Shown here: positions 1 to 16,500 of the stretch, piece by piece | Numbering within the stretch: the stretch's first letter is position 1 | How the letters are laid out: each line of letters opens with the position of its first letter | Origin: Patescibacteria group bacterium | GTDB taxonomy: Bacteria; Patescibacteriota; UBA1384; XYA2-FULL-43-10 | Assembly: GCA_041674405.1 (NCBI GenBank) | Contig: JBAYVT010000001.1 | Coordinates: 180,001 to 212,000, forward strand | Direction: 5' to 3' | Length of the DNA stretch: 32,000 bases | Position numbers and translations under genes: made by a program | Notes under the pieces: model-generated | Told to the model about the DNA's origin: nothing | The model's database searches: none | The model's input: the letters and a program-made list of their open reading frames with translations, nothing else

Positions 1-1517
1 GGCTGTTATTCGCATATTTTTCGGTTGTGGACGCAGATCTAACAAGAGCAGCAATTTGGGCAAAATTGAATTTTGCATCTGTAACAATTTTTATCATTCT
101 TTCATATTTTTTTGTAATTAATTTCTTTAAAAAGACTAAAACCACGAGAGCTGTCGATTATGCCATCGTGGCTTTTGGAACTGTATTATTATTTACTGTC
201 ACATTTTCTCGTCTGATAATTGACAGTACTAGCTCGGAAACATGGGGGAATCAAATCAATTATGGTCCTTTGTGGTTATGTTACGTACTTGCCATTAGCC
301 TGATTGGCGGATATTCAGTATTTATTCTGCTCCAAAAATATAAGGATCTCGACACTGAAGGAAAAAGCAAATTAAAGTATTTTCTTGTTGGTGTATTTTT
401 ATTTTTTCTTGGCAACCTAATTTTTAACGCTTTGATAAATTTGATAGTCGATTCAAATAAATTTGACTCTTTCGGTGACTACTCAATCCTTATATTTCTG
501 GGATTTACGGCGTACGCAATTATTAAAGACAAACTTTTTGATATCAAGTTGATTGCAACCCAAATTATTGTTATCGCGCTTTCGGTTTCATTATTGATTG
601 AAGTATTTATTTCCAACACGCTGAGCGAAGGAGCGATAAAGGCTATTATTTGGGGATTGGCAACTTACGGTGGATATTTATTAATCAAGTCAGTTCAGGT
701 TGAAATCAAGCAGCGGGAAGATTTGGCGGTTTTGGCAAAGAAACTTGAAAAGGCAAACGATGATCTTAAAAAAATGGATCAGCTCAAGGATGATTTTATA
801 TCGATGGCATCGCACGAGCTCAATACGCCTGTTTCAGCTATTAAGGGGTATATGTCCATGATCTTGGAGGAGGGGCTTGGCGGCAAAATCCCCGATCAGG
901 TGCGAAGCTATCTCGAGAAGGTATATTCTTCTTCGCAAAGGTTGGCATCCATGATCAAGGATCTTCTCAATGTTTCACGTATTGAATCTGGCAGAATACA
1001 CTTGATCTATGAGCAAAAGCCAATAGAAGAGCTGATAGACCAAGCCATTGGCGAGATTATGTCGAAGGCAAAAGAAGCCAATCATACCCTTGTGTTTAAT
1101 AAACCAGAAAAGGCGTTGCCGCTTACCTGGTTTGATGTGACAAGAATTATGGAAATCCTCATCAATATTATTGGCAATTCAATCAAATATACTGATCCGG
1201 GTGGCAAGATCGAAGTTTCGGCATCAGCCGAGGACAAGCTTATCACTGTTGCGATCAAAGACAATGGCCGCGGTATCCCGAAAGAAAAGCAGGACCAGGT
1301 ATTCTCCAAATTTACTCAGGTTGACGTACTTAAAGATGAGGTCAAAGGCACAGGCCTTGGCATGTACATTTCAAAAGAATTTATTAATCTCCACAAAGGC
1401 AAAATTTGGTTTGAGTCTGATGGCGAAAATAAAGGCACGACGTTTTACTTTTCACTGCCAATTTTGAAGGAGAAACCTCTCGACCCTCACGAAGGAGAAG
1501 GAGCCGTTTTGCACTAG
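1..1517 (+). CDS. Sensor histidine kinase with polytopic membrane N-terminus; probably 5'-truncated by the window edge
   Basis: ORF track 27..1517. The frame stays open back to nt 3 and there is no SD before GTG-27, so the gene likely begins upstream of the window. It has about 6 hydrophobic helices, then a coiled coil, a HisKA H-box 'MASHELNTPVSAIKGY', an HATPase N-box 'IGNSIKYT', G1 'DNGRGIP' and G2 'GTGLGM'. Confidence 0.9.
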   Translation, partial: LLFAYFSVVDADLTRAAIWAKLNFASVTIFIILSYFFVINFFKKTKTTRAVDYAIVAFGTVLLFTVTFSRLIIDSTSSETWGNQINYGPLWLCYVLAISLIGGYSVFILLQKYKDLDTEGKSKLKYFLVGVFLFFLGNLIFNALINLIVDSNKFDSFGDYSILIFLGFTAYAIIKDKLFDIKLIATQIIVIALSVSLLIEVFISNTLSEGAIKAIIWGLATYGGYLLIKSVQVEIKQREDLAVLAKKLEKANDDLKKMDQLKDDFISMASHELNTPVSAIKGYMSMILEEGLGGKIPDQVRSYLEKVYSSSQRLASMIKDLLNVSRIESGRIHLIYEQKPIEELIDQAIGEIMSKAKEANHTLVFNKPEKALPLTWFDVTRIMEILINIIGNSIKYTDPGGKIEVSASAEDKLITVAIKDNGRGIPKEKQDQVFSKFTQVDVLKDEVKGTGLGMYISKEFINLHKGKIWFESDGENKGTTFYFSLPILKEKPLDPHEGEGAVLH

Positions 1518-1981: not shown

Positions 1982-3880
1982 ATGGGTAAAATTATCGGAA
2001 TTGACTTGGGTACGACAAACTCTGCCGTTGCCGTAATGGAAGGCGGAGAAGCCAAAATTATTACGACTGCCGAAGGCGGGCGCACTTGTCCATCAATTGT
2101 CGCCGAGACTAAAAAAGGCGATCGCCTCGTTGGGCAACTGGCCAAAAGGCAGGCTGTGACCAATGCAGAAAACACGATTTTTTCAGTAAAGCGCTTCATC
2201 GGCCGCAATTTTGACGACAAGGAAGCACAGGCTGACCTTAAAAAAATGCCTTACAAAACAATGAAGGCCTCCGACGGTTCAATCCGCGTTGTCATGAATG
2301 GTAAGGAATATAGCCCGCAGGAAGTTTCAGCTTTTACCTTGCAAAAATTAAAGACAGATGCCGAAACATATCTTGGCGAGAAGGTCACAGACGCCGTAAT
2401 CACCGTCCCAGCCTACTTCAATGATGCACAAAGACAGGCTACCAAGGATGCGGGCAAAATCGCTGGTCTTGACGTGAAACGAATTATCAACGAACCTACT
2501 GCCGCTTCGCTTGCTTATGGCCTCGATAAGAAAAAAAATGAAAAGATCGCAGTTTATGATCTCGGTGGTGGAACTTTTGATATTACCATCCTTGAGCTCG
2601 GCGATGGCGTTTTCGAAGTCAAGGCGACCAATGGTGACACTCATCTCGGTGGTGATGACTTCGATCAACGCATCATGGACTTTATTATCGATGAGTTCAA
2701 AAAGGATCAGGGGATCGATCTTCACTCAGACACGGCTGCGCTTCAGCGTATAAAAGAAGCCGCAGAAAAAGCCAAAATTGAGCTTTCTTCGACAACCGAA
2801 ACTGAAATTAATCTGCCATTTATTACTGCCGATGCTTCCGGCCCGAAGCATCTGACGATGAATATTACCCGAGCCAAACTCGAAGATATCGTCGGCGAAT
2901 TAATCGAAGCAACTCTTAAGCCATGTGAAACTGTGATGAAAGACGCCGGCGTTACCGCCAAGGATATCAATGAAGTGATTCTTGTGGGTGGTATGACCAG
3001 GATGCCTAAGGTTCGCGAAACAGTGAAAAAGTTTTTTGACAAAGAGCCAAACCATTCCGTAAACCCGGACGAGGCTGTGGCAATCGGCGCTGCAATTCAA
3101 GGTGGAATCTTGGGCGGTGAGGTTAAGGACCTTCTTCTTCTCGATGTCACTCCCCTATCTCTCGGAATTGAAACACTCGGTGGCGTGATGACCAAGCTTA
3201 TAGACAAAAACACGACTATTCCGACTTCAAAATCACAGATTTTCTCAACAGCAGCAGACAACCAGACACAAGTTGATATCCATGTCCTTCAGGGCGAGCG
3301 CGAAATGGCTGCTGACAACCGCACGCTTGGCCGATTTGTCCTCGATGGCATTCCTCCAGCTCCACGAGGCATCCCGCAAGTTGAAGTCTCCTTTGACATT
3401 GATGCTAATGGCATAGTGAATGTGAAAGCAACGGATAAGGCCACTAACAAAGAGCAAAAAATTACAATCACCAGCTCCTCCGGCCTTTCCGACGAAGACA
3501 TCGAGAAAATGAAGAAGGATGCTGAACTTCACGCCGAAGAAGACAAGAAGAAAAAAGAACTTATTGATGCCAGAAATATGGCTGACAGCTTGATTTTCAC
3601 TGCCGAGAAGACTATCAAAGATGCCGGAGAAAAAGCTGACTCGAATCTAAAGAGCGACGTTGAGAGCAAGATTGAGGCCCTAAAGGGAGTAAAAGAGAGC
3701 GACAACACAGAAGAAATCAAGACTCAAACCGAATCACTATCAAAATCGCTTCAGGAACTGGGCGCAAAGATGTACGAACAGGCTGGACCGCAACAAGCCC
3801 CTGAAAAACCGGAAAATGAAAGTAAAGATGGTGCTAGCAAAGAGGAAAAGCCAGACGACAAGGGAGAAGAAAATAAATAA
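1982..3880 (+). CDS. dnaK: Molecular chaperone DnaK (Hsp70)
   Basis: 632 aa with hallmark motifs '[13 protein letters not shown]', 'DLGGGTFD' and '[11 protein letters not shown]', plus an acidic C-terminal lid/tail. SD GAAGGAGA lies just upstream of the ATG. Confidence 0.98.
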
Positions 3881-3983: not shown

Positions 3984-4676
3984 ATGTTGGATATCTTCAA
4001 AAGGCCAATTACCGTCATTATCATTGTTGGGGCGATTGTGATCGCCCTTATCTGGTCATATGTTGACAAGAGAATTCAATCCAATAAGGAAGCTGCGGAA
4101 GCTAAAAAAATTACCGATGCCGCTCAGATCATTACCAATCTTACCAATATAGATCCCAAAGATTACGATGAATTAGTGAAGGCTGAATATCAGAAAGCAG
4201 TTACGAATGCGACAGCAGCTGATCCAAATAATGCATTTTCGGCGTTGGTGGTAGAATTGCCAGGCGACCTTGCCTTAAACTCGGGAAATGACAGATTTGT
4301 TTTTACTTCTCCGGACAATGCTGCAAATAACTGGACCATCACATTTTCTGAGCTTACCGGCAACTTTATTCGGGCAATAATTCCCAAAAGCGATTATTTA
4401 GGGGAACTGAAGCCGGTAAATACAAACCTATGGAAATTCCAATATGTGACGGCAATTCAAATTGCCGAACAAAATGGCGGAAAGACTTTTCGTGAAAACA
4501 ATTCTTTGACCGGAGTTACACTTACCCTGAAGCACGGAGACCCGAATAATTGGCTGGCATGGACAGTCGAATACAACAGCAAGGATAATAAATTTGTAAA
4601 ACAGGTTGATGCCAATTCCGGAAAAACGATTGATTCAATTTCAACTACCGGAGATCAAGCATCTTCTGTCCAGTAA
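3984..4676 (+). CDS. Membrane-anchored hypothetical protein with PepSY-like C-terminal region
   Basis: SD AGGAGG lies before the ATG. There is an N-terminal TM helix (ITVIIIVGAIVIALIW). The C-terminal pattern 'YVTAIQIAEQNGG...VTLTLKH...WTVEY...VDANSGKTI' resembles PepSY; this is a by-eye call. Confidence 0.7.
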   Translation: MLDIFKRPITVIIIVGAIVIALIWSYVDKRIQSNKEAAEAKKITDAAQIITNLTNIDPKDYDELVKAEYQKAVTNATAADPNNAFSALVVELPGDLALNSGNDRFVFTSPDNAANNWTITFSELTGNFIRAIIPKSDYLGELKPVNTNLWKFQYVTAIQIAEQNGGKTFRENNSLTGVTLTLKHGDPNNWLAWTVEYNSKDNKFVKQVDANSGKTIDSISTTGDQASSVQ

Positions 4677-4769
4677 TTCAAATCTCAAATTTCAAATCTC
4701 AAAAATAAGGAATTAAATATTTAAATATTTGAGATGAAATTTTGACTTTTGAAATTTAAGTTTTGAGAT
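4677..4769. repeat. Intergenic word repeats: 2x TTCAAATCTCAAA (direct) and 2x TTTGAGAT (inverted)
   Basis: Direct copies at 4677-4689 and 4691-4703. Inverted partial copies at 4728-4735 and 4762-4769; the last sits immediately 5' of the dnaJ-like start. The palindrome AATATTTAAATATT lies between them. Confidence 0.7.
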
Positions 4770-4774
4770 ATATC

Positions 4775-5437
4775 ATGTCCAAGGATTACTATAAAATTCT
4801 AGGAGTGGACAAGAGGGCTTCCGCCGACGAAATCAAAAAAACATATCGGAAGCTTGCTTTGGAATGTCATCCGGATCGAGGCGGAGGAGACAAAGCGGAA
4901 GAGAAATTCAAAGAACTGAACGAAGCTTATCAAGTTCTTTCGGATTCACAGAAACGGGCACAATACGATCAATTTGGCTCAACATTCGCAGGCGGACAGG
5001 GCAGCGGTGGATTTGGCGGTTTCGATTTTGGCGGATTCCAAGGGCAAGATTTCGGTGGATTCGGTCCCGAAGGGGCCCACTTTGGGGGCTTTGGCGGCGG
5101 CGGGCTTGGCGATATATTTGATGATTTCTTTGGTGCTGCTTTTTCATCCGTGTCTGCTGAGATTGAGATTGGCCCCGCGCAAGCTGTTCTCGGTGAAAAA
5201 ATTTCGATCAATGTTAGTGGTGAAAATATTGAACTAAATATCCCACCTGGCATTCAGGATGGAACTACTTTTCGGTTTCTTGGCAAGGGTCGCGCATACA
5301 ACAAGTCGGGTAAGAAAGGCGATCTCAATGTGATAGTGCACATAAAAATGCCTCAAAGAATCACACCGGAGCAAAAGGAGCTATGGGAGAAGCTTAAGGA
5401 AGCCGAATCAAAGAAGAAATCTTGGTGGCAACGCTAG
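4775..5437 (+). CDS. J-domain co-chaperone, DnaJ-like but lacking the zinc-finger domain
   Basis: J domain 'DYYKILGV...HPDRGGG' (HPD motif), a G/F-rich linker, and one C-terminal DnaJ-type segment ('[17 protein letters not shown]...[12 protein letters not shown]'). There are no CxxCxGxG repeats. ATG-4775 gives the canonical N-terminus; the track's TTG-4763 adds 4 aa. Confidence 0.88.
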
Positions 5438-5918: not shown

Positions 5919-7322
5919 TTATAATTTGTCAATTTTAGAACTGATTGAAGCAAAATAATCTTTGATATTTTGATAATTTAAGTTTTCTTTGACCTCATTC
6001 AGCAACACCCAAACAGGAATTTCGTCGGTTTCTTTTTCTCCAAGATCCACTTTCTCTGATCTAAAAAGAAACATTTTACAGGTGATTCCTTTCGGGTTCA
6101 TTTTATTTACATACTCGAAATCGGGCAGATCAGTTCCATCAGACACTACAACCCCGGTTTCTTCAAATATCTCTCTGATAGCCGCTTTCTTTTCATCTTC
6201 TCCAGGCTCTAAGTGGCCTTTTGGAAATGAAAACTCATTGTTGTGACGCGGCCGCTGGATCATCAGAACATATTTTTTGCCTTGGCGCTCCAACACAACT
6301 ATTCCGCCTGATTTTAGAGTGTGCCCTGCTGGATTTTTTACTTTATTTGGATGATTCAGCTCCGAAAGAATAACTTTTATTAATTCTTCTATACCTTTAT
6401 TAGCTGCGGCAGAAATCGGAATAGCAACCACGCTAATTTCTTCAAATTGCCCGATTTTTGACTTGATGTTTTCTGAAGATTCAACATCGGTTTTATTTAA
6501 TACAACAATTTCATTTTTGCTGCTTAAGTTTTTTGAAAATTCCTCAAGCTCCTTGCGAATTGTTTTGTAATCACGAATCACATCGTCACTCATCGAATCA
6601 ATCACATGCACAAGCAAATTGGTGCGCTCGATATGTTTTAGGAATCGATCGCCAAGCCCACGTCCAGCCGATGCTCCTTCAATCAAGCCAGGGATGTCGG
6701 CGACAATAACATTGCGATCTATACCCTTAATAACCCCTAGATTCGGCGTAAGCGTAGTAAAGGGATAGTCGGCAACTTTCGGCCTAGCATTGGAAATAAC
6801 CGATAAGAGAGTTGACTTACCAGCATTTGGAAGGCCGATGAGCCCTACATCTGCGATCATTTTAAGTTCCAGGTTTAAACGTTTTGATTCTCCGAATAAG
6901 CCCTTTTTTGACCATTTTGGAGCTTGTTTGATCGAGGTGGCAAAATGTACATTTCCCCAGCCGCCTTGCCCCCCACTTACTGCGACGTATGAACCGGCAT
7001 CACCCGCTAGATCAGCTACCAATTTATCATCTTCAAATATTTGTGTGCCTAGGGGCACATTCAATTTAAGATCATCGCCGTTTTTGCCGTGCATTTTTTT
7101 ACCCATTCCATTTTGGCCATTTTCCGCACTGAATTTTCTGATGCGGTTAAAATAAGACAGATCCGATGTGTGTGAATCGGCAGAGATGATGACACTGCCA
7201 CCATTTCCTCCATCTCCCCCATCGGGCCCACCTTTTGGAACATATTTTTCATGGCGAAAAGAGGCAGACCCATCTCCGCCATTGCCGGCTTTCACATAAA
7301 TTTTCGCTTCATCAAAAAACAT
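5919..7322 (-). CDS. obg: GTPase Obg/CgtA fused to a C-terminal Nudix hydrolase domain
   Basis: Glycine-rich Obg fold ('GGDGGNGGSV'), G1 'GLPNAGKST', G3 'DIPGLIEGA' and G4 'NKTD'. The C-terminal ~130 aa carry a perfect Nudix box 'GHLEPGEDEKKAAIREIFEETGV' (6150-6218). The canonical N-terminus MFFDEAKIY starts at ATG-7322; the track start at 7355 adds 11 aa. Confidence 0.92.
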   Translation of the reverse strand: MFFDEAKIYVKAGNGGDGSASFRHEKYVPKGGPDGGDGGNGGSVIISADSHTSDLSYFNRIRKFSAENGQNGMGKKMHGKNGDDLKLNVPLGTQIFEDDKLVADLAGDAGSYVAVSGGQGGWGNVHFATSIKQAPKWSKKGLFGESKRLNLELKMIADVGLIGLPNAGKSTLLSVISNARPKVADYPFTTLTPNLGVIKGIDRNVIVADIPGLIEGASAGRGLGDRFLKHIERTNLLVHVIDSMSDDVIRDYKTIRKELEEFSKNLSSKNEIVVLNKTDVESSENIKSKIGQFEEISVVAIPISAAANKGIEELIKVILSELNHPNKVKNPAGHTLKSGGIVVLERQGKKYVLMIQRPRHNNEFSFPKGHLEPGEDEKKAAIREIFEETGVVVSDGTDLPDFEYVNKMNPKGITCKMFLFRSEKVDLGEKETDEIPVWVLLNEVKENLNYQNIKDYFASISSKIDKL

Positions 7323-7327
7323 GACTT

Positions 7328-7432
7328 TCACAGAATGGTTATCACAGAATTTCACAGAATTGATTGCAGCATGGATTCATGAGATTCACAGAAATGATAT
7401 TTTTCTGTGTCTTTCTGTGTGATTTTTCTGTG
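7328..7432. repeat. Array of 7 copies of an 7-8 nt word in the obg leader (4x TCACAGAA, 3x TTCTGTG on the plus strand)
   Basis: TCACAGAA at 7328, 7342, 7352 and 7386. The inverted TTCTGTG at 7403, 7413 and 7426. On the obg (minus) strand this reads 3x CACAGAA followed by 4x TTCTGTGA. Confidence 0.8.
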
Positions 7433-9934: not shown

Positions 9935-10744
9935 CTACTTTCCACTCCTCAGAAGTGATCTTAAACGATTTTCTAGCCGGTCGCTGCCGATTCTTCTCTC
10001 AATCGCCCCATCCGCAGCAAGTGAAACATTGCCAGTTTCCTCCGACACAATTACAGATACCGCATCAGAATTTTCGGTTATTCCAAGACCAGCCCGATGT
10101 CTTGTTCCCATTTTTGATGATGCCTCAAAATCGGATACTGGCAGGGTAACCGATGCGGCAACTATTTTCGATCCGGAAATTATGACGGCTCCATCGTGCA
10201 GCGGGGATCGAGGAAAAAATATCGAAAGGAGTAACTCGGCGGATACTACGGCATCTAGCTCGGCCCCTCGTTCAATATATTCCCGAAGACCGGTTTTGCG
10301 CTGAAAAACGATCAAAGCGCCAATTTTTTGTTTGGACAAAATATCTACCGCCGCAAGAACTTCGTTCACTACATTAAGCTGTGTACCGCGGCCAAAATCT
10401 TTGATAAATCTGGTCCGGCCAAGCCGCTCAAGGGCGTTTCGAAGCTCGGGCTGGAAAACAATTGGAATTGCAACAACAAGCATCGCCATAATATATTGGA
10501 GAATCCAATTTAATAGTACCAGATTCATTAATCTGCCAATCAACATAAGAGCTAGGAGAAAAAATAGGCCATAGAGGATTCTCATCGCTCGCGTTTCTCG
10601 CAGAAAAATATAAGCCCAATAAAAAAGAACCGTCACTATAAACACATCGAGAATTATGAGAGGCCACGAAGTAGCATGGAGGTTCTCAAAAAAATAACTA
10701 GCCTTTGATGTAACACTTAGGACTTGACCAGACATTGAATCCAC
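9935..10744 (-). CDS. cdaA: Diadenylate cyclase CdaA (DisA_N/DAC domain, 3 TM helices)
   Basis: DAC motifs 'LHDGAVII' and 'GTRHRAGLGITENSDAVSVIVSEETGNVSLA', with three N-terminal TM helices. GTG start at 10744 with AGAGGGA 7 nt upstream; an alternative ATG is at 10735. Confidence 0.93.
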   Translation of the reverse strand: MDSMSGQVLSVTSKASYFFENLHATSWPLIILDVFIVTVLFYWAYIFLRETRAMRILYGLFFLLALMLIGRLMNLVLLNWILQYIMAMLVVAIPIVFQPELRNALERLGRTRFIKDFGRGTQLNVVNEVLAAVDILSKQKIGALIVFQRKTGLREYIERGAELDAVVSAELLLSIFFPRSPLHDGAVIISGSKIVAASVTLPVSDFEASSKMGTRHRAGLGITENSDAVSVIVSEETGNVSLAADGAIERRIGSDRLENRLRSLLRSGK

Positions 10745-10782
10745 TGAAAAATCCCTCTGTTGTAATAAATGAATACACTATC

Positions 10783-10810
10783 ATTTTACCACAAGCAGAA
10801 TTTGATGCAA
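10783..10810 (-). promoter_or_regulatory. Candidate cdaA promoter (extended -10)
   Basis: Minus strand: TTGCAT (10810->10805), 16-nt spacer ending in TGG, TAAAAT (10788->10783). It starts 13 nt after the 3' end of the ribozyme motif. Confidence 0.5.
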
Positions 10811-10823
10811 AAAATACGGGTAG

Positions 10824-10878
10824 ACCCCTTTCGTCGTAATTTTCAACGACTCATCAGAACACTTATGTGTTGAGGGGT
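10824..10878 (-). ncRNA. Type III hammerhead ribozyme motif
   Basis: Minus strand 5'-ACCCC UC^AACAC AUAA GUGUU CUGAUGA GUCGU UGAAAAUU ACGAC GAAA GGGGU-3'. Both conserved core strands are present, along with G10.1:C11.1, A15.1:U16.1 and an NUH triplet (CUC). There are three perfect helices: I and II are capped and III is open. Predicted cleavage is between 10872 and 10871. Confidence 0.8.
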
Positions 10879-10910
10879 GGACGAACAGCAAATGTCCGCC
10901 CCGGGCAGGC

Positions 10911-11402
10911 TTAGGCCTCCTCCATGACCTGAGCCAGAGTCAGAAACTCCTTGTCCCGACTAAACGACTCGAATCCCATCGGGACATCATTCTCCCGCCG
11001 CAGCTTAAGTACGCCGTGGCGTTCGAGAGCCACACCCATGGTGACGGCAAGGTCGCACAAGGCTACGGCATCTTCCCCCTTGCAAACCCCGAAGTCCACC
11101 ATGAAGCTTCTCGTGACCAGCTCACACAGCGTGAAGCAGCACTCCGTGCTTGGCTGGCCCCACTCTTCCAGTGTCGGCCTCGGATGTTCTGCCGCCGCCT
11201 CCGGCTTTTGCACCTTGTGGCGTGCTGCAAAATCATCGAGGATTCCGACAATCTTCTCCCAGTCTGCCACATCTTCCGCACGGGAAGATTCTTTCAGTGG
11301 CAGAAGTGAGAGATAGATACTTGCCAGCAGCCCCTCGAACTCTTCATACCTGAAGTCGGTGTGGGGCATCGTCCCGACATTCAGTTGGGCTTCTTCGCCC
11401 AT
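10911..11402 (-). CDS. Orphan acidic protein, 163 aa, 5 Cys, no recognisable family
   Basis: ORF track 10911..11423. I prefer ATG-11402 because AAGGAG (11417->11412) lies 9 nt upstream. It is the longest ORF in the island, its composition is protein-like (E/L/A/D-rich), and G/C-ending codons (for example CTG Leu) contrast with neighbouring genes. Confidence 0.7.
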   Translation of the reverse strand: MGEEAQLNVGTMPHTDFRYEEFEGLLASIYLSLLPLKESSRAEDVADWEKIVGILDDFAARHKVQKPEAAAEHPRPTLEEWGQPSTECCFTLCELVTRSFMVDFGVCKGEDAVALCDLAVTMGVALERHGVLKLRRENDVPMGFESFSRDKEFLTLAQVMEEA

Positions 11403-11439
11403 TGGGCACCACTCCTTTATCACTCGAGTTTCGCACTAG

Positions 11440-11468
11440 ACAATACAAGATTTATCCTTTAATGTCAA
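11440..11468 (-). promoter_or_regulatory. Near-consensus promoter driving the GC-rich ORF
   Basis: Minus strand: TTGACA (11468->11463), 17-nt spacer, TATTGT (11445->11440). The predicted 5' UTR is about 30 nt and contains the SD. Confidence 0.55.
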
Positions 11469-11493
11469 GGATCAATCAGTAATTCAGACTAAT

Positions 11494-11521
11494 AAAAAAG
11501 ATCGAGAACTCGATCTTTTTT
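11494..11521 (-). terminator. Intrinsic terminator of infB (bidirectional form)
   Basis: AAAAAAGATCG-agaact-CGATCTTTTTT lies 26 nt downstream of the infB stop, with A/T runs on both sides. Confidence 0.75.
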
Positions 11522-11546
11522 ATTATTTCCGAAAAGATATTATTTG

Positions 11547-13573: not shown

Positions 13574-16500
13574 CTAGTTATACAACCCTTTTTGCTTACC
13601 CCAGTAGTTTGGCTCATCATCCTTTTTTATTGAAGGAACCTTTTTGATCGTAAACCCAGCTTCAACTGATTTTTCCTCGTTTTTTTCTTCCCTTACTTTC
13701 ACCTCTGCTGTTTCTTTGTAATTATGGATTTCTGGAATAATTGTTTTCGAAGAATTTGATTTTTCTTCTGGCTGTTTTGTTGATTTTGTCTCCGGCACTT
13801 TTGGCTCCTTGTAGGATTTAATCTTTAATTCCGCAGCCGGATCATTCTTTTCATCTTTTTCTGCAGCTCTTTTTTCAACACTTTGCGAATTGGCAACTTC
13901 TTTTGAAGAATTATTTTTCGACTCATCGGATGATTTTGTTTCTTCTTGTGGCTTAATATCTAATTTTGGCGGTTTTCCATTATCCAGCGGAAGCTGACTG
14001 CTATCTCCTTCGTCTTCATCATTCGGCAAAATCAGGGCAACAGACGCAACCTTATCTCCTCCCTTTAATCTCATGAGCGTAACGCCCTGAGTGTCTCGGC
14101 CCAAACGTTTAATATCTTTAAGTGCCATTCTTATAAACTGGCCTTTGTTTGAAGCAAGGACAACATCTCCTTCATCAGAATAGGTAATATGCATACCGAT
14201 TACGTTACCAGTTTTCGGAGTGCAGTTAGCGGCTTTTATTCCCATTCCTCCGCGTTTCTGCAAGTGGAAATGTTTCAGCATTGTGCGTTTTCCAAATCCA
14301 TTTTCAAGAACAATTAGCATATCCGGCCCAGTATATTTGGTGATTGTTTCGTCAAATATACCCGCAAATTTGCTATGAATAACATCCATCGACATCACAT
14401 TATCGGAAGCCTTGAGCCTCACTCCGGTTACGCCGCTTGCAGATCGTCCCATTGGCCTGGCATCAGTTTCGTTATAGCAGATTGCAAGGCCTTTTTCAGA
14501 GACCTCGACAATCGTGTCGTTGCCAGAAGTTGCCTTAACCCATTTAAGCTCATCGCCAGATTTCAAGCCGATTGCAACAATGCCGGTTTTTCTTATATTG
14601 TCATACTTTTCAATTTCTGTACGCTTGATTTGGCCGTTTTTGGTCCCCATGACAAAGAATTTCATGCCGTCTTTTACTTGCGGGACAGTCAAAATTGAAG
14701 TTACTTTTTCAGTTGGACCAAGCTGGATTATGTTTACTACCGGTGTGCCTTTTGACTGGCGTGAAGTTGCCGGAAGTTCATAGACCTTACTCTTGAACAC
14801 GCGCCCTTGGTTGGTAAAAAAGTATATATCATCATGAGTATATGAGCACACCAGATAATCAACAATATCCTCTTCCTTGGTCGTCATCCCAACTACACCA
14901 ACACCGCCACGGACTTGTTTCCTGTACGTCCCAACCTCTTGGCGCTTAATGTAGTTGCCTCGGGAGAGAGAAACAATTACTTGTTCGTTCGGGATTAAAT
15001 CTTCAGCAGAGAATGATCCGAGGGCATGCGGAACGACAACTGTTCTTCTGCCGTCGCCGTATTTTTCTTTAACTTCAGAAAGATCATCTTTGATAAGCCC
15101 AAGAATTTTTTCGGGATGAGCAAGAATATCCTCAAGATGAGCAATCCTCTTCATAATTTCGGCAAGCTCATCTTCGATTCTCTTTCTCTCAAGAGCTGCT
15201 AATGCCGAAAGCCTCATGTCCAGAATAGCGTCAGCTTGTTTTTCGGAAAGCTCAAACCTTTTTATCAAATTTATTTTTGCCGCATCACGGGTTTCGGATT
15301 CTTTTATTGTCTTGATAACCTCATCGATATTATCAAGAGCAATTTTCAAGCCTTCTAAAATATGAGCCCTATCTTTGGCACGATTAAGCTCATATTCACT
15401 GCGCCTAGTAATTACTTCTTTCCGGTGTTCAATATAATAACCAAGCACATCTTTGAGTGACATCACCCTTGGTTCAAGATCGGGAGTTAAGGCAAGCAAA
15501 TTTACATGAAATGCCGTCTGCATGCTTGTAAGCTCAAATAGGCGGTTTAAAACCTTATTTGGATAAGCACTGCCCTTGAGCTCAACCACAACCCTGACCC
15601 CGCGGCGGTCTGATTCGTCTCGAAGGTCAGAAATTCCATCAATTTTTTTCAGCTTTACAAGTTCAGCAATTTTCTCGATCAAAGTTGCTTTATTTACCTG
15701 ATATGGAATTTCCGTGATCACGATACGGAAGCCGCGCTTCGCTTCTTCGATCTCAGCTTTTGCCCGCATCATAATGCGGCCCTTGCCGGTCGCATATGCT
15801 GTTTTGATATCTTCAATATTGTAGATATTTCCGCCAGTTGGAAAATCTGGCCCTTTTATAAATTCCATGAGATCATCAACAGTTGCTTCAGAATTATCAA
15901 TCAAATGTATGACACCATCACACAATTCTCCCAAATTGTGAGGTGGAATATTGGTTGCCATGCCAACGGCAATTCCCATGGAACCGTTCAACAATAGTTG
16001 CGGAATTCTTGCCGGTAATACCATTGGTTCCTGTGTCGAGCCATCATAGTTATCTTGCCAGTTGACGGTATCTTTATCGATATCAAGAAGCATTTCTTCT
16101 GCAATTGCGCTCATACGGCACTCAGTATATCGCATTGCAGCAGCAGAATCGCCATCCATAGAGCCAAAGTTTCCCTGGCCATCAATCATAGGATAACGCA
16201 TTGAAAAATCTTGAGCTAAACGCACCAAGCTATCATAAACCGCTAAATCGCCGTGTGGATGAAAATTACCAAGTACCTCACCCACGACTTTTGCCGATTT
16301 GCGGTATTTCACATTGTGGCGAAGCCCCGTTGAATACATGGCATATAATACGCGGCGGTGAACCGGTTTCAGGCCATCGCGAACATCAGGCAGTGCCCGA
16401 GAAACAATAACACTCATAGCATAATCGAGATATGAGACTTGCATTTCTTCTATCAATGACCGCGGTTTTAAAAGGCCAAATTCACTCTTGATTTCTTCCT

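Follow-up and report, generated by a model that had tools for sequence, protein, structure and literature searches.

A candidate foreign gene cassette ending in a hairpin and a predicted type III hammerhead ribozyme between infB and cdaA of a Patescibacteria bacterium

A stretch of 32,000 nucleotides from a Patescibacteria group bacterium (contig JBAYVT010000001.1, positions 180,001 to 212,000; in the following the window, to which all coordinates without another source refer) was analyzed for a small gene unit which carries a predicted hammerhead ribozyme behind its open reading frame (ORF). On the minus strand, the window contains in this order gyrB, gyrA, infB, the unit (here called the cassette), cdaA, cdaR/YbbR, a LysM-CHAP gene and obg, thus a housekeeping stretch. 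After infB, a terminator-like bidirectional hairpin is found (11490–11525), formed by an inverted repeat of 17 nt without mismatches that is bordered by runs of A and T. The cassette begins with a sigma70-like promoter (TTGACA-17-TATTGT; 11468–11440; 10/12 matches) and a short predicted 5′ leader (11433–11403), for which the start site was inferred from the position of the −10 region. A Shine-Dalgarno sequence AAGGAG (11417–11412) is located 9 nt 5′ of the ATG at 11402, and the orphan ORF encoding 163 amino acids extends from 11402 to 10911 with a G + C content (GC) of 57% and a GC at third codon positions (GC3) of 0.67. It is separated by a spacer of 32 nt (10910–10879), containing a 9-bp hairpin with the loop UUUGC (10901–10893 / 10887–10879), from a type III hammerhead (10878–10824) with the predicted cut C10872|A10871. 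The 3′ edge of the insert lies at the host-DNA junction CUACCCGUA with the following six T (10823–10809), which overlaps the −35 region of the cdaA promoter. This promoter with an extended −10 region (TTTGCA-17-TGgTAAAAT; 10811–10783) begins 12 nt past the ribozyme, and the downstream host genes, outside the cassette, are cdaA for diadenylate cyclase (9935–10744) and then cdaR/YbbR. All elements listed in a preliminary description of this locus were found on the minus strand, at most a few bases from where they had been placed. That description had also reported no intrinsic terminator between the ORF and cdaA, in agreement with a terminator scan of this interval, which returned no canonical one; a weak GGG/CCC hairpin with a six-T run (10814–10809) is present 9 nt after the ribozyme, and some termination at this T run is possible.

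The catalytic core of the hammerhead is complete, consisting of CUGAUGA at 10857–10851 (C3-U4-G5-A6-N7-G8-A9) and GAA at 10832–10830 (G12-A13-A14). According to the Rfam alignment, the topology is that of type III with three helices around the core, of which helix I (10871–10867 / 10862–10858) and helix II (10850–10846 / 10837–10833) are capped and helix III (10878–10873 / 10829–10824) is open. The cleavage triplet is C-U-C at 10874–10872, A10829 pairs with U10873 (A15.1-U16.1), and H17 is not G; the CUC triplet of the alignment also predicts the cut between 10872 and 10871 that had been proposed before. The match to RF00008 (Hammerhead_3) scored 45.3 bits with E-values of 1.7e-8 in a 1-kb search and 9.5e-7 in a 56-kb search, which is far beyond chance. 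In the minimum-free-energy fold of 10915–10815, a three-way junction is formed together with the 9-bp hairpin, which directly abuts helix III and is therefore free to stack on it. One hammerhead is present in the 32 kb, and neither flanking direct repeats nor a target-site duplication were found around the unit.

Relatives from the Candidate Phyla Radiation (CPR) were used to analyze the pairing further. In 72 distinct type III hammerheads, helix I position 4 pairs in all 72 and position 5 in 67, with five pair types at each of these positions, which were not used in detecting the relatives. The pairs were counted by a structure-aware parse; a MAFFT alignment of 17 ribozymes misplaced the members with short loops. 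Compensatory double changes in helix I are also present within the subfamily of the window ribozyme, namely at the loci L261 and L268 (L numbers designate the loci of this study). H17 is C, A or U and never G in the 72 relatives, a position where the detection filter demanded non-G. From its sequence, the ribozyme looks real and is predicted to cleave itself at the site given above.

With respect to its origin, the cassette is the sole GC outlier of the window (up to 0.61, compared to a mean of 0.41 with a standard deviation of 0.047), and the GC3 of the ORF contrasts with values of 0.36–0.40 for five host genes. The infB-ORF-ribozyme-cdaA junctions are identical in the ENA (ERZ27247358) and JGI (3300037067) assemblies and in two overlapping Logan contigs; these assemblies were made separately from samples which are perhaps not independent. 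The JGI assembly (L011) shows a single difference over 6,114 nt, located within infB. In the Logan assembly of SRR6484325, a break is located within the hammerhead core (end of L012 and start of L002, window 10855–10835) with an overlap of 21 nt, as a repeated k-mer would give, the 32-nt core being identical in all cassettes; this break suggests that the core is present more than once in the sample. In the closest relatives according to CdaA (L269 and L270; 84% identity), the region between infB and cdaA consists of a 203-nt AT-rich spacer only; in L271 (CdaA 84%) it contains a gene of the 23S-rRNA-IVP family, and in L272 (CdaA 67%) two other genes. The −10 region of the cdaA promoter is recognizably common to relatives lacking the insert, and therefore host sequence resumes by ~10806. 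The spacers of the relatives with 84% CdaA identity have diverged too far to be aligned; only this −10 region can be matched, and no 5′ edge of the cassette could be placed. A search for a strain lacking the cassette gave the known contig and no other. The unit is foreign, and its site between infB and cdaA is variable. In the spacer of L272, a GC-rich (54–63%) orphan gene with an ordinary terminator was observed on the opposite strand (4664–5197, minus); foreign GC-rich genes have thus landed repeatedly in the infB-cdaA spacer. The inverted repeat at 11490–11525, which has no counterpart in the empty infB-cdaA spacer of L269, may be host-owned or may have been brought in by the insert.

The 163-aa protein is listed at NCBI as a hypothetical protein. 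A search of 5.8 billion proteins yielded six relatives with 32–56% identity, and a profile search yielded 106 representative clusters; the N-terminal motif GxMPxTDFRYEEFEGLL is invariant in this family. An AlphaFold model (predicted local distance difference test score 93.9) shows a helical bundle plus a beta hairpin, for which a fold search of the PDB gave no significant match. The protein had no usable match in family libraries either, the only Pfam match being the sub-threshold family PA2201_N (E 0.0019). The ORF is a member of a real but small family. No hammerhead was detected near the ORF relatives (six relatives, seven contigs), which are located in ordinary low-GC DNA with a composition matching the flanks; therefore, the ribozyme is no companion of this protein family. 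Homologs never associated with a ribozyme had been named in the preliminary description as an argument against the module. This holds for all relatives checked, but it does not count against the module, because the ribozyme travels with the cassette type and not with the protein family.

Some further features of these ORF relatives were noted. Relative contigs of ~1 kb were considered as Obelisk-like RNAs and rejected, as they consist of ordinary DNA with neighboring genes, terminators, a GC matching the flanks and no hammerhead. The sole relative on a viral contig (L274, 4010–4525; 81-kb IMG/VR contig) is located near four tRNA genes, directly upstream of and overlapping by 4 nt a gene for 419 amino acids, whose translation by eye is leucyl-tRNA synthetase-like. 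In L004 (1–184 and 680–900) and L005 (180–380), a repeated structured element, CCTGTTAGTTTC ... GGATTTTAGTGCAACG ... AAGCGGGCGAGCG, flanks a hammerhead-free ORF relative, and the reverse complement of AAGCGGGCGAGC is found downstream of this gene; a search of the element against Rfam gave no match at E ≤ 1.

Scanning one genome per species with a pattern of helix II and the core resulted in more than 120 matches, mostly in Saccharibacteria and other Patescibacteria, with L044, L076 and L081 sharing both the ribozyme and the upstream hairpin with the window. A more specific ribozyme pattern matched 16 metagenome loci and had no match in IMG/VR. Altogether, 17 distinct loci, the window included, have the hairpin-hammerhead module, and it stands behind unrelated orphan ORFs. 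The family of cassettes can be defined by an own promoter, a GC-rich orphan ORF in an AT-rich genome, a hairpin, and a hammerhead with the helix II GUCGU-UGAAAAUU-ACGAC; all four features are present in the window and in L044, L076, L081 and L253–L268. Wherever a cargo ORF was identifiable at a module locus, it has its own sigma70-like promoter, and the promoters of family members are located in AT-rich DNA directly upstream of the GC-rich part. The GC of the cargo is mostly 52–64% with GC3 values of up to 0.82 in hosts with 31–44% GC, two cargos being near the host GC, and the codon usage of the cargo is closer to that of high-GC organisms than to that of the carrier. In the set of 72 CPR hammerheads, the 400 nt upstream are richer in GC than the 400 nt downstream (p 2.5e-7). 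The cargo proteins all differ between cassettes, and a Pfam search with those of ten other cassettes found no family above threshold. The locus indicates that CPR bacteria have among them a circulating pool of orphan genes which are foreign and strongly folded.

Two further observations were made at the family loci. An element of ~95 nt, AAACAA..AGTTCTAAC..TTCGCTAT..CTCCCGCCA followed by a terminator hairpin and GGCAGACCGGACnTAGAACT, whose ends AGTTCTAA and TTAGAACT form inverted repeats, is located past the hammerhead in most members, including L264, L267 and L268, and is also found alone after neighboring GC-rich ORFs. Its sites comprise 2231–2330 and 5586–5690 in L076, 3934–4030 (minus) in L256, and 515–620 and 1292–1353 (minus) in L253; the element could be a miniature inverted-repeat transposable element (MITE), an attC-like recombination site or a small RNA. 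Beside the hammerhead cassette of L256, a gene with 60–67% GC is located on the opposite strand (3050–3750, minus). Its product, judged by eye from the translation, is a protein with a prepilin-type N-terminal helix of the kind common in Planctomycetes, a further sign of the import of high-GC genes into CPR genomes.

The hairpin upstream of the ribozyme is found at the same place in 15 of 16 family members, 0–3 nt 5′ of helix III, with a sequence differing from locus to locus. Its mean folding energy is −16.0 kcal/mol, compared to −9.3 and −7.1 kcal/mol in GC-matched control windows inside the same cargo (p 8e-4 and 9e-5); the hairpin is therefore a component of the module. In the window, GGGG at 10902–10899 can pair with CCCC at 10877–10874 after the predicted cut, so that the last 35 nt of the predicted 5′ product refold into a hairpin containing this GGGG-CCCC pairing with two free 3′ nucleotides. 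Across the family, a stable hairpin with 0–8 unpaired nt behind it closes the predicted 5′ cleavage products. Among the proposals of the preliminary description, the one that the ribozyme defines the 3′ end of the orphan mRNA is best supported by this comparison, as unrelated orphan genes at a minimum of 16 further loci have the module at their end and the predicted products all close with a hairpin; the support is partial, and the proposal is an interpretation.

For the folding of the RNA upstream of the module, the predicted window transcript (11433–10872) was compared with dinucleotide shuffles, giving z-scores of −3.8 and −4.2 in two runs. With synonymous-codon shuffles, which preserve both protein and codon usage, the window ORF reached z −4.6. 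The same comparison gave −0.6 to −3.1 for other cassette ORFs, +1.6 to −2.9 for ORF relatives without ribozyme, and +0.2, +2.1, −2.9 and −0.4 for four host gene segments. The host segment with z −2.9 is part of gyrA (14939–15499). A folding signal is hence also found outside the cassette, which is nevertheless the more extreme of the two. A set of 18 non-redundant CPR loci had a mean z of −4.9 in the 400 nt before the hammerhead, compared to −0.9 for the downstream region (p 0.001), and z-scores of cassette RNAs in relatives go down to −8. The predicted folds are chains of long local hairpins and not rods; in the window RNA, only 14% of the pairs are on one axis. A search for pairing between the leader and the 3′ region in the window gave one match of 10/12, which is not used in the minimum-free-energy fold and was treated as chance.

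Besides this family, a larger and very abundant type III family with the helix II tetraloop GUCG-GAAA-CGAC and several copies per genome was found in Saccharibacteria (L013–L132, e.g. L050 1581, L073 7334, L031 791 and L022 1286, minus strand); L073 is a locus of the cultivated strain Nanosynbacter TM7-053. Here, the order is a GC-rich ORF, a long hairpin containing the helix III strand, and the hammerhead. A conserved host gene often runs towards this sister module, with its stop codon directly adjoining, and the cargo at the same locus differs between genomes. In L050, L121, L031 and L022, the motif RAGATH-10 (RF03147) forms the 5′ leader, 450–600 nt upstream of the hammerhead. By definition, RAGATH motifs are associated with genes that occur alongside twister and hammerhead ribozymes, and most of them are without known function (PMC11061315, PMC5737381). 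In the window, RAGATH-10 was not detected at E ≤ 1, and neither this nor any other Rfam motif was found in the window cassette or its subfamily. In L079 and L121, the leader contains TGACAAGCAG, complementary to a CTGCTTGTCA located immediately 5′ of the cleavage site, a pairing which could join the 5′ and 3′ ends of the transcript.

Taking anatomy, composition and family together, we regard window 10812–11470 as probably being a horizontally acquired cassette with a ribozyme that serves as 3′-end maker and insulator. The self-contained unit of ~660 bp on the minus strand would be transcribed from its own sigma70-type promoter into a GC-rich, strongly folded mRNA for the 163-aa protein. Its last 78 nt would form a portable 3′ module, composed of the stable hairpin stacked on the type III hammerhead. 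In vivo, as we infer, the ribozyme would act on the transcript during or after its synthesis, with the cut between C10872 and A10871. Upstream of it, this would give a monocistronic cargo mRNA with a 2′,3′-cyclic phosphate on a 2-nt tail behind the hairpin, and the CCCC released from helix III would fold back on GGGG, making the cut irreversible. Bacterial 3′ exonucleases require a single-stranded tail of ~7–10 nt, and poly(A) polymerase requires a 3′-OH. The short tail would thus leave these enzymes little grip, and hairpin, short tail and cyclic phosphate together would therefore amount to a durable mRNA end, the stabilization being a step which we infer. The downstream product with a 5′-OH would contain the ribozyme body and any read-through into cdaA-cdaR; as everything downstream would leave with this fragment, the cargo message would be uncoupled from its surroundings. 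The module would act as a context-independent 3′-end maker and insulator, enabling cassettes to function wherever they landed.

A wider proposal is put forward more tentatively, since we see it as possible but rather doubtful: that obligatory maturation by self-cleavage characterizes a CPR-wide class of exchangeable cassettes, each composed of a structured GC-rich mRNA, a hairpin and a hammerhead, and that it yields exonuclease-resistant mRNAs with cyclic phosphates as an alternative to intrinsic termination. As a bolder extension, the matured RNA itself may be a mobile or exported entity.

Several points weigh against the proposed function or against parts of the evidence for it. Most other family members have an ordinary intrinsic terminator 20–100 nt past the ribozyme. 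In these members a 3′ end is possible without the ribozyme, so cleavage must add something more, for which the cyclic phosphate, the removal of the U tail or the release of the downstream piece are candidates. The window copy lacks this downstream terminator, and the family motif (AGTTCTAAC...) was not found in the window either. The score of the window hammerhead is below the Rfam gathering score of 48.5 bits, and therefore a default Rfam scan of the window returned nothing, the hammerhead being visible only in E-value mode. Related hammerheads scored 36–41 bits, and none of ten related loci reached the gathering score. This is a threshold issue, as no feature of the ribozyme is missing. The search pattern fixed helix II and part of helix III, so that both are without independent covariation within the subfamily. 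Finally, cleavage does not halt RNA polymerase, and insulation is thus at the RNA level only.

Other explanations were weighed against the same evidence. The terminator past the ribozyme in most family members would be lost on cleavage, and as the cargo genes are foreign orphans, the ribozyme might instead damp expression by removing the stabilizing terminator hairpin and U tail, thereby shortening the life of the cargo mRNA, as in mammalian CLEC2 messages, and keeping a possibly harmful foreign protein low. However, a stable hairpin is conserved immediately 5′ of the cut and stays on the mRNA, and the cargo RNAs are selected for strong folding, both of which point to stability, so we consider a damping role unlikely. 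Slightly less probable still is an RNA-level mobile or circular element of the viroid, Obelisk or retrozyme kind, in which the hammerhead makes unit-length RNA for circularization or reverse transcription; a DNA copy of such an RNA had been suggested in the preliminary description. The occurrence of a type III hammerhead together with a small ORF, the exceptional structure of the cassette RNAs (z-scores between −3.8 and −4.6 for the window and as low as −8 for relatives), the coincidence of the GC-rich stretch with the transcribed unit and the different cargo at the same locus in related Saccharibacteria would all fit. The suggestion is contradicted, however, by a chromosomal DNA unit with a DNA promoter and a single ribozyme, flanked by neither direct repeats nor a target-site duplication, by branched folds which are strings of local hairpins instead of rods, and by ORF relatives residing in ordinary DNA. 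Moreover, ligation would need two ends that a single hammerhead cannot both produce, none of the ORFs examined was noted as a reverse transcriptase, and this ribozyme subtype had no match in IMG/VR.

The region downstream of the cut gives rise to two further explanations, both very improbable in our view. If the 3′ fragment with the ribozyme body, a conserved element of ~40 nt and the terminator were the functional product, released as a small RNA, the presence of the element AAACAA..AGTTCTAAC..TTCGCTAT..CTCCGCCA with a terminator past the ribozyme in many members, and also alone, would be accounted for; yet the element is also found without ribozyme, and the window copy lacks it and is hence left unexplained. 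Marginally lower again we place a host device for cyclic di-AMP, in which read-through from the cassette promoter, re-ended with a 5′-OH, is a second source of cdaA-cdaR mRNA with altered stability. The co-orientation of the cassette with cdaA, 78 nt upstream of it, and the lack of a canonical terminator in between would permit this, but cdaA of close relatives does without the cassette and retains its own conserved promoter, and elsewhere the module adjoins unrelated genes, terminators or convergent genes. The re-ending of the cdaA message, which the preliminary description had proposed along with the formation of the orphan mRNA's 3′ end, would thus be no more than a side effect. We attach next to no probability to an artefact, be it a chance hammerhead-like sequence, an assembly chimera or the engineered insert considered earlier. 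The score below the Rfam cut-off, the sharp GC jump and the Logan break inside the ribozyme could raise this suspicion, but the E-value of 1.7e-8, the identical junctions in the ENA, JGI and Logan assemblies and the many natural relatives of the module in numerous metagenomes contradict it, and a break with a 21-nt overlap in a common 32-nt core is expected of a repeated k-mer. The window ribozyme is, to our knowledge, not among the usual synthetic insulators (RiboJ and related parts).

Among the self-cleaving ribozymes of bacteria, hammerheads are considered the most common, and we know of no cellular function shown for them more than ten years after their discovery there. If the proposed 3′-end formation is true, it would be a first defined cellular role for bacterial hammerheads. 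The fixed and simple architecture leads to a clear prediction, namely an mRNA end with a cyclic phosphate, protected by a hairpin, and a foreign gene isolated from its surroundings, by which the old question of the purpose of bacterial hammerheads is turned into a direct experiment. Standard Rfam annotation misses such ribozymes, all of which scored under the gathering cut-off. Apart from the cassette, it was observed that the Obg GTPase of the window (5919–7355, minus) is fused to a C-terminal NUDIX hydrolase domain (467–478 aa), whereas Obg of the relatives with 84% and 67% CdaA identity is plain (322–325 aa).

For comparison with known systems, bacterial and prophage hammerheads flanking single genes were reportedly described by Jimenez et al. 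in 2011 and by de la Pena and Garcia-Robles in 2010. As in the window, prophage hammerheads are located between genes on one transcript, the flanked genes are not constant, and the function is unproven. They are mostly of type II or clustered and near integrases, whereas the window has a single type III hammerhead in a CPR housekeeping region, 3′ of a promoter-bearing GC-rich orphan gene and after a hairpin; its subtype was not found in IMG/VR. Hammerheads flanking single genes in prophages, with a proposed processing into single-gene mRNAs, were published in 2011 (Perreault et al., PMC3088659), and self-cleaving ribozymes tend to be located near particular gene classes (PMC5737381). As both the gene-flanking placement and the processing idea had thus been published, the claim of the preliminary description that no bacterial gene-plus-ribozyme layout was described is overstated. 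In the literature searched, we found no description of hammerheads in Saccharibacteria, Patescibacteria or CPR, nor of the order promoter, foreign orphan gene, hairpin and type III hammerhead, nor of hyper-structured cargo RNAs. Part of the RAGATH-10-led cassettes, which have the same layout as the window cassette, has already been catalogued via RAGATH-10 (PMC11061315); the window cassette differs from these by its short plain leader, a different helix II loop and the absence of RAGATH-10.

The type III hammerheads of viroids and satellites (RF00008, e.g. of peach latent mosaic viroid, PLMVd) have the same core and topology and a similar loop 2, with the consensus UGAaAuA compared to UGAAAAUU in the window; the hammerhead of the window differs in being encoded in chromosomal DNA, in single copy and without rolling-circle context. 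Obelisks, viroid-like RNAs and retrozymes resemble the cassette in having a small ORF, a type III hammerhead and an RNA with much structure. In contrast to Obelisks and viroid-like RNAs, the cassette is encoded in DNA, with infB and cdaA as its neighbors in three assemblies, has a promoter and one ribozyme, and is not rod-like; in contrast to retrozymes, it has neither two hammerhead-bearing direct repeats nor a target-site duplication. Integron cassettes are promoterless ORFs with an attC site, arranged in an array near an integrase. The window cassette has its own promoter, no attC-like inverted repeat and otherwise housekeeping genes around it, while an attC- or MITE-like element is present at other family loci. 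In the glmS ribozyme and the hammerhead in the 3′ untranslated region (UTR) of mammalian CLEC2, self-cleavage sets the fate of an mRNA via new ends, as is proposed here. However, glmS acts in the 5′ UTR and depends on a metabolite, and CLEC2 hammerheads lower expression; in the window no ligand pocket or switch is evident. In synthetic insulators such as RiboJ and its relatives, and in ribozyme-assisted polycistronic expression, a self-cleaving hammerhead plus a hairpin frees an expression unit from its neighbors. These engineered parts belong to the 5′ UTR, and their hairpin follows the cut, whereas the natural module of the window is placed 3′ of the gene, its hairpin preceding the cut. Intrinsic terminators and stabilizing hairpins of the repetitive extragenic palindromic (REP) type likewise let an mRNA end in a G + C-rich stem-loop blocking 3′ exonucleases; the end in the window would arise by self-cleavage instead of polymerase release, bearing a cyclic phosphate and lacking a U tail.

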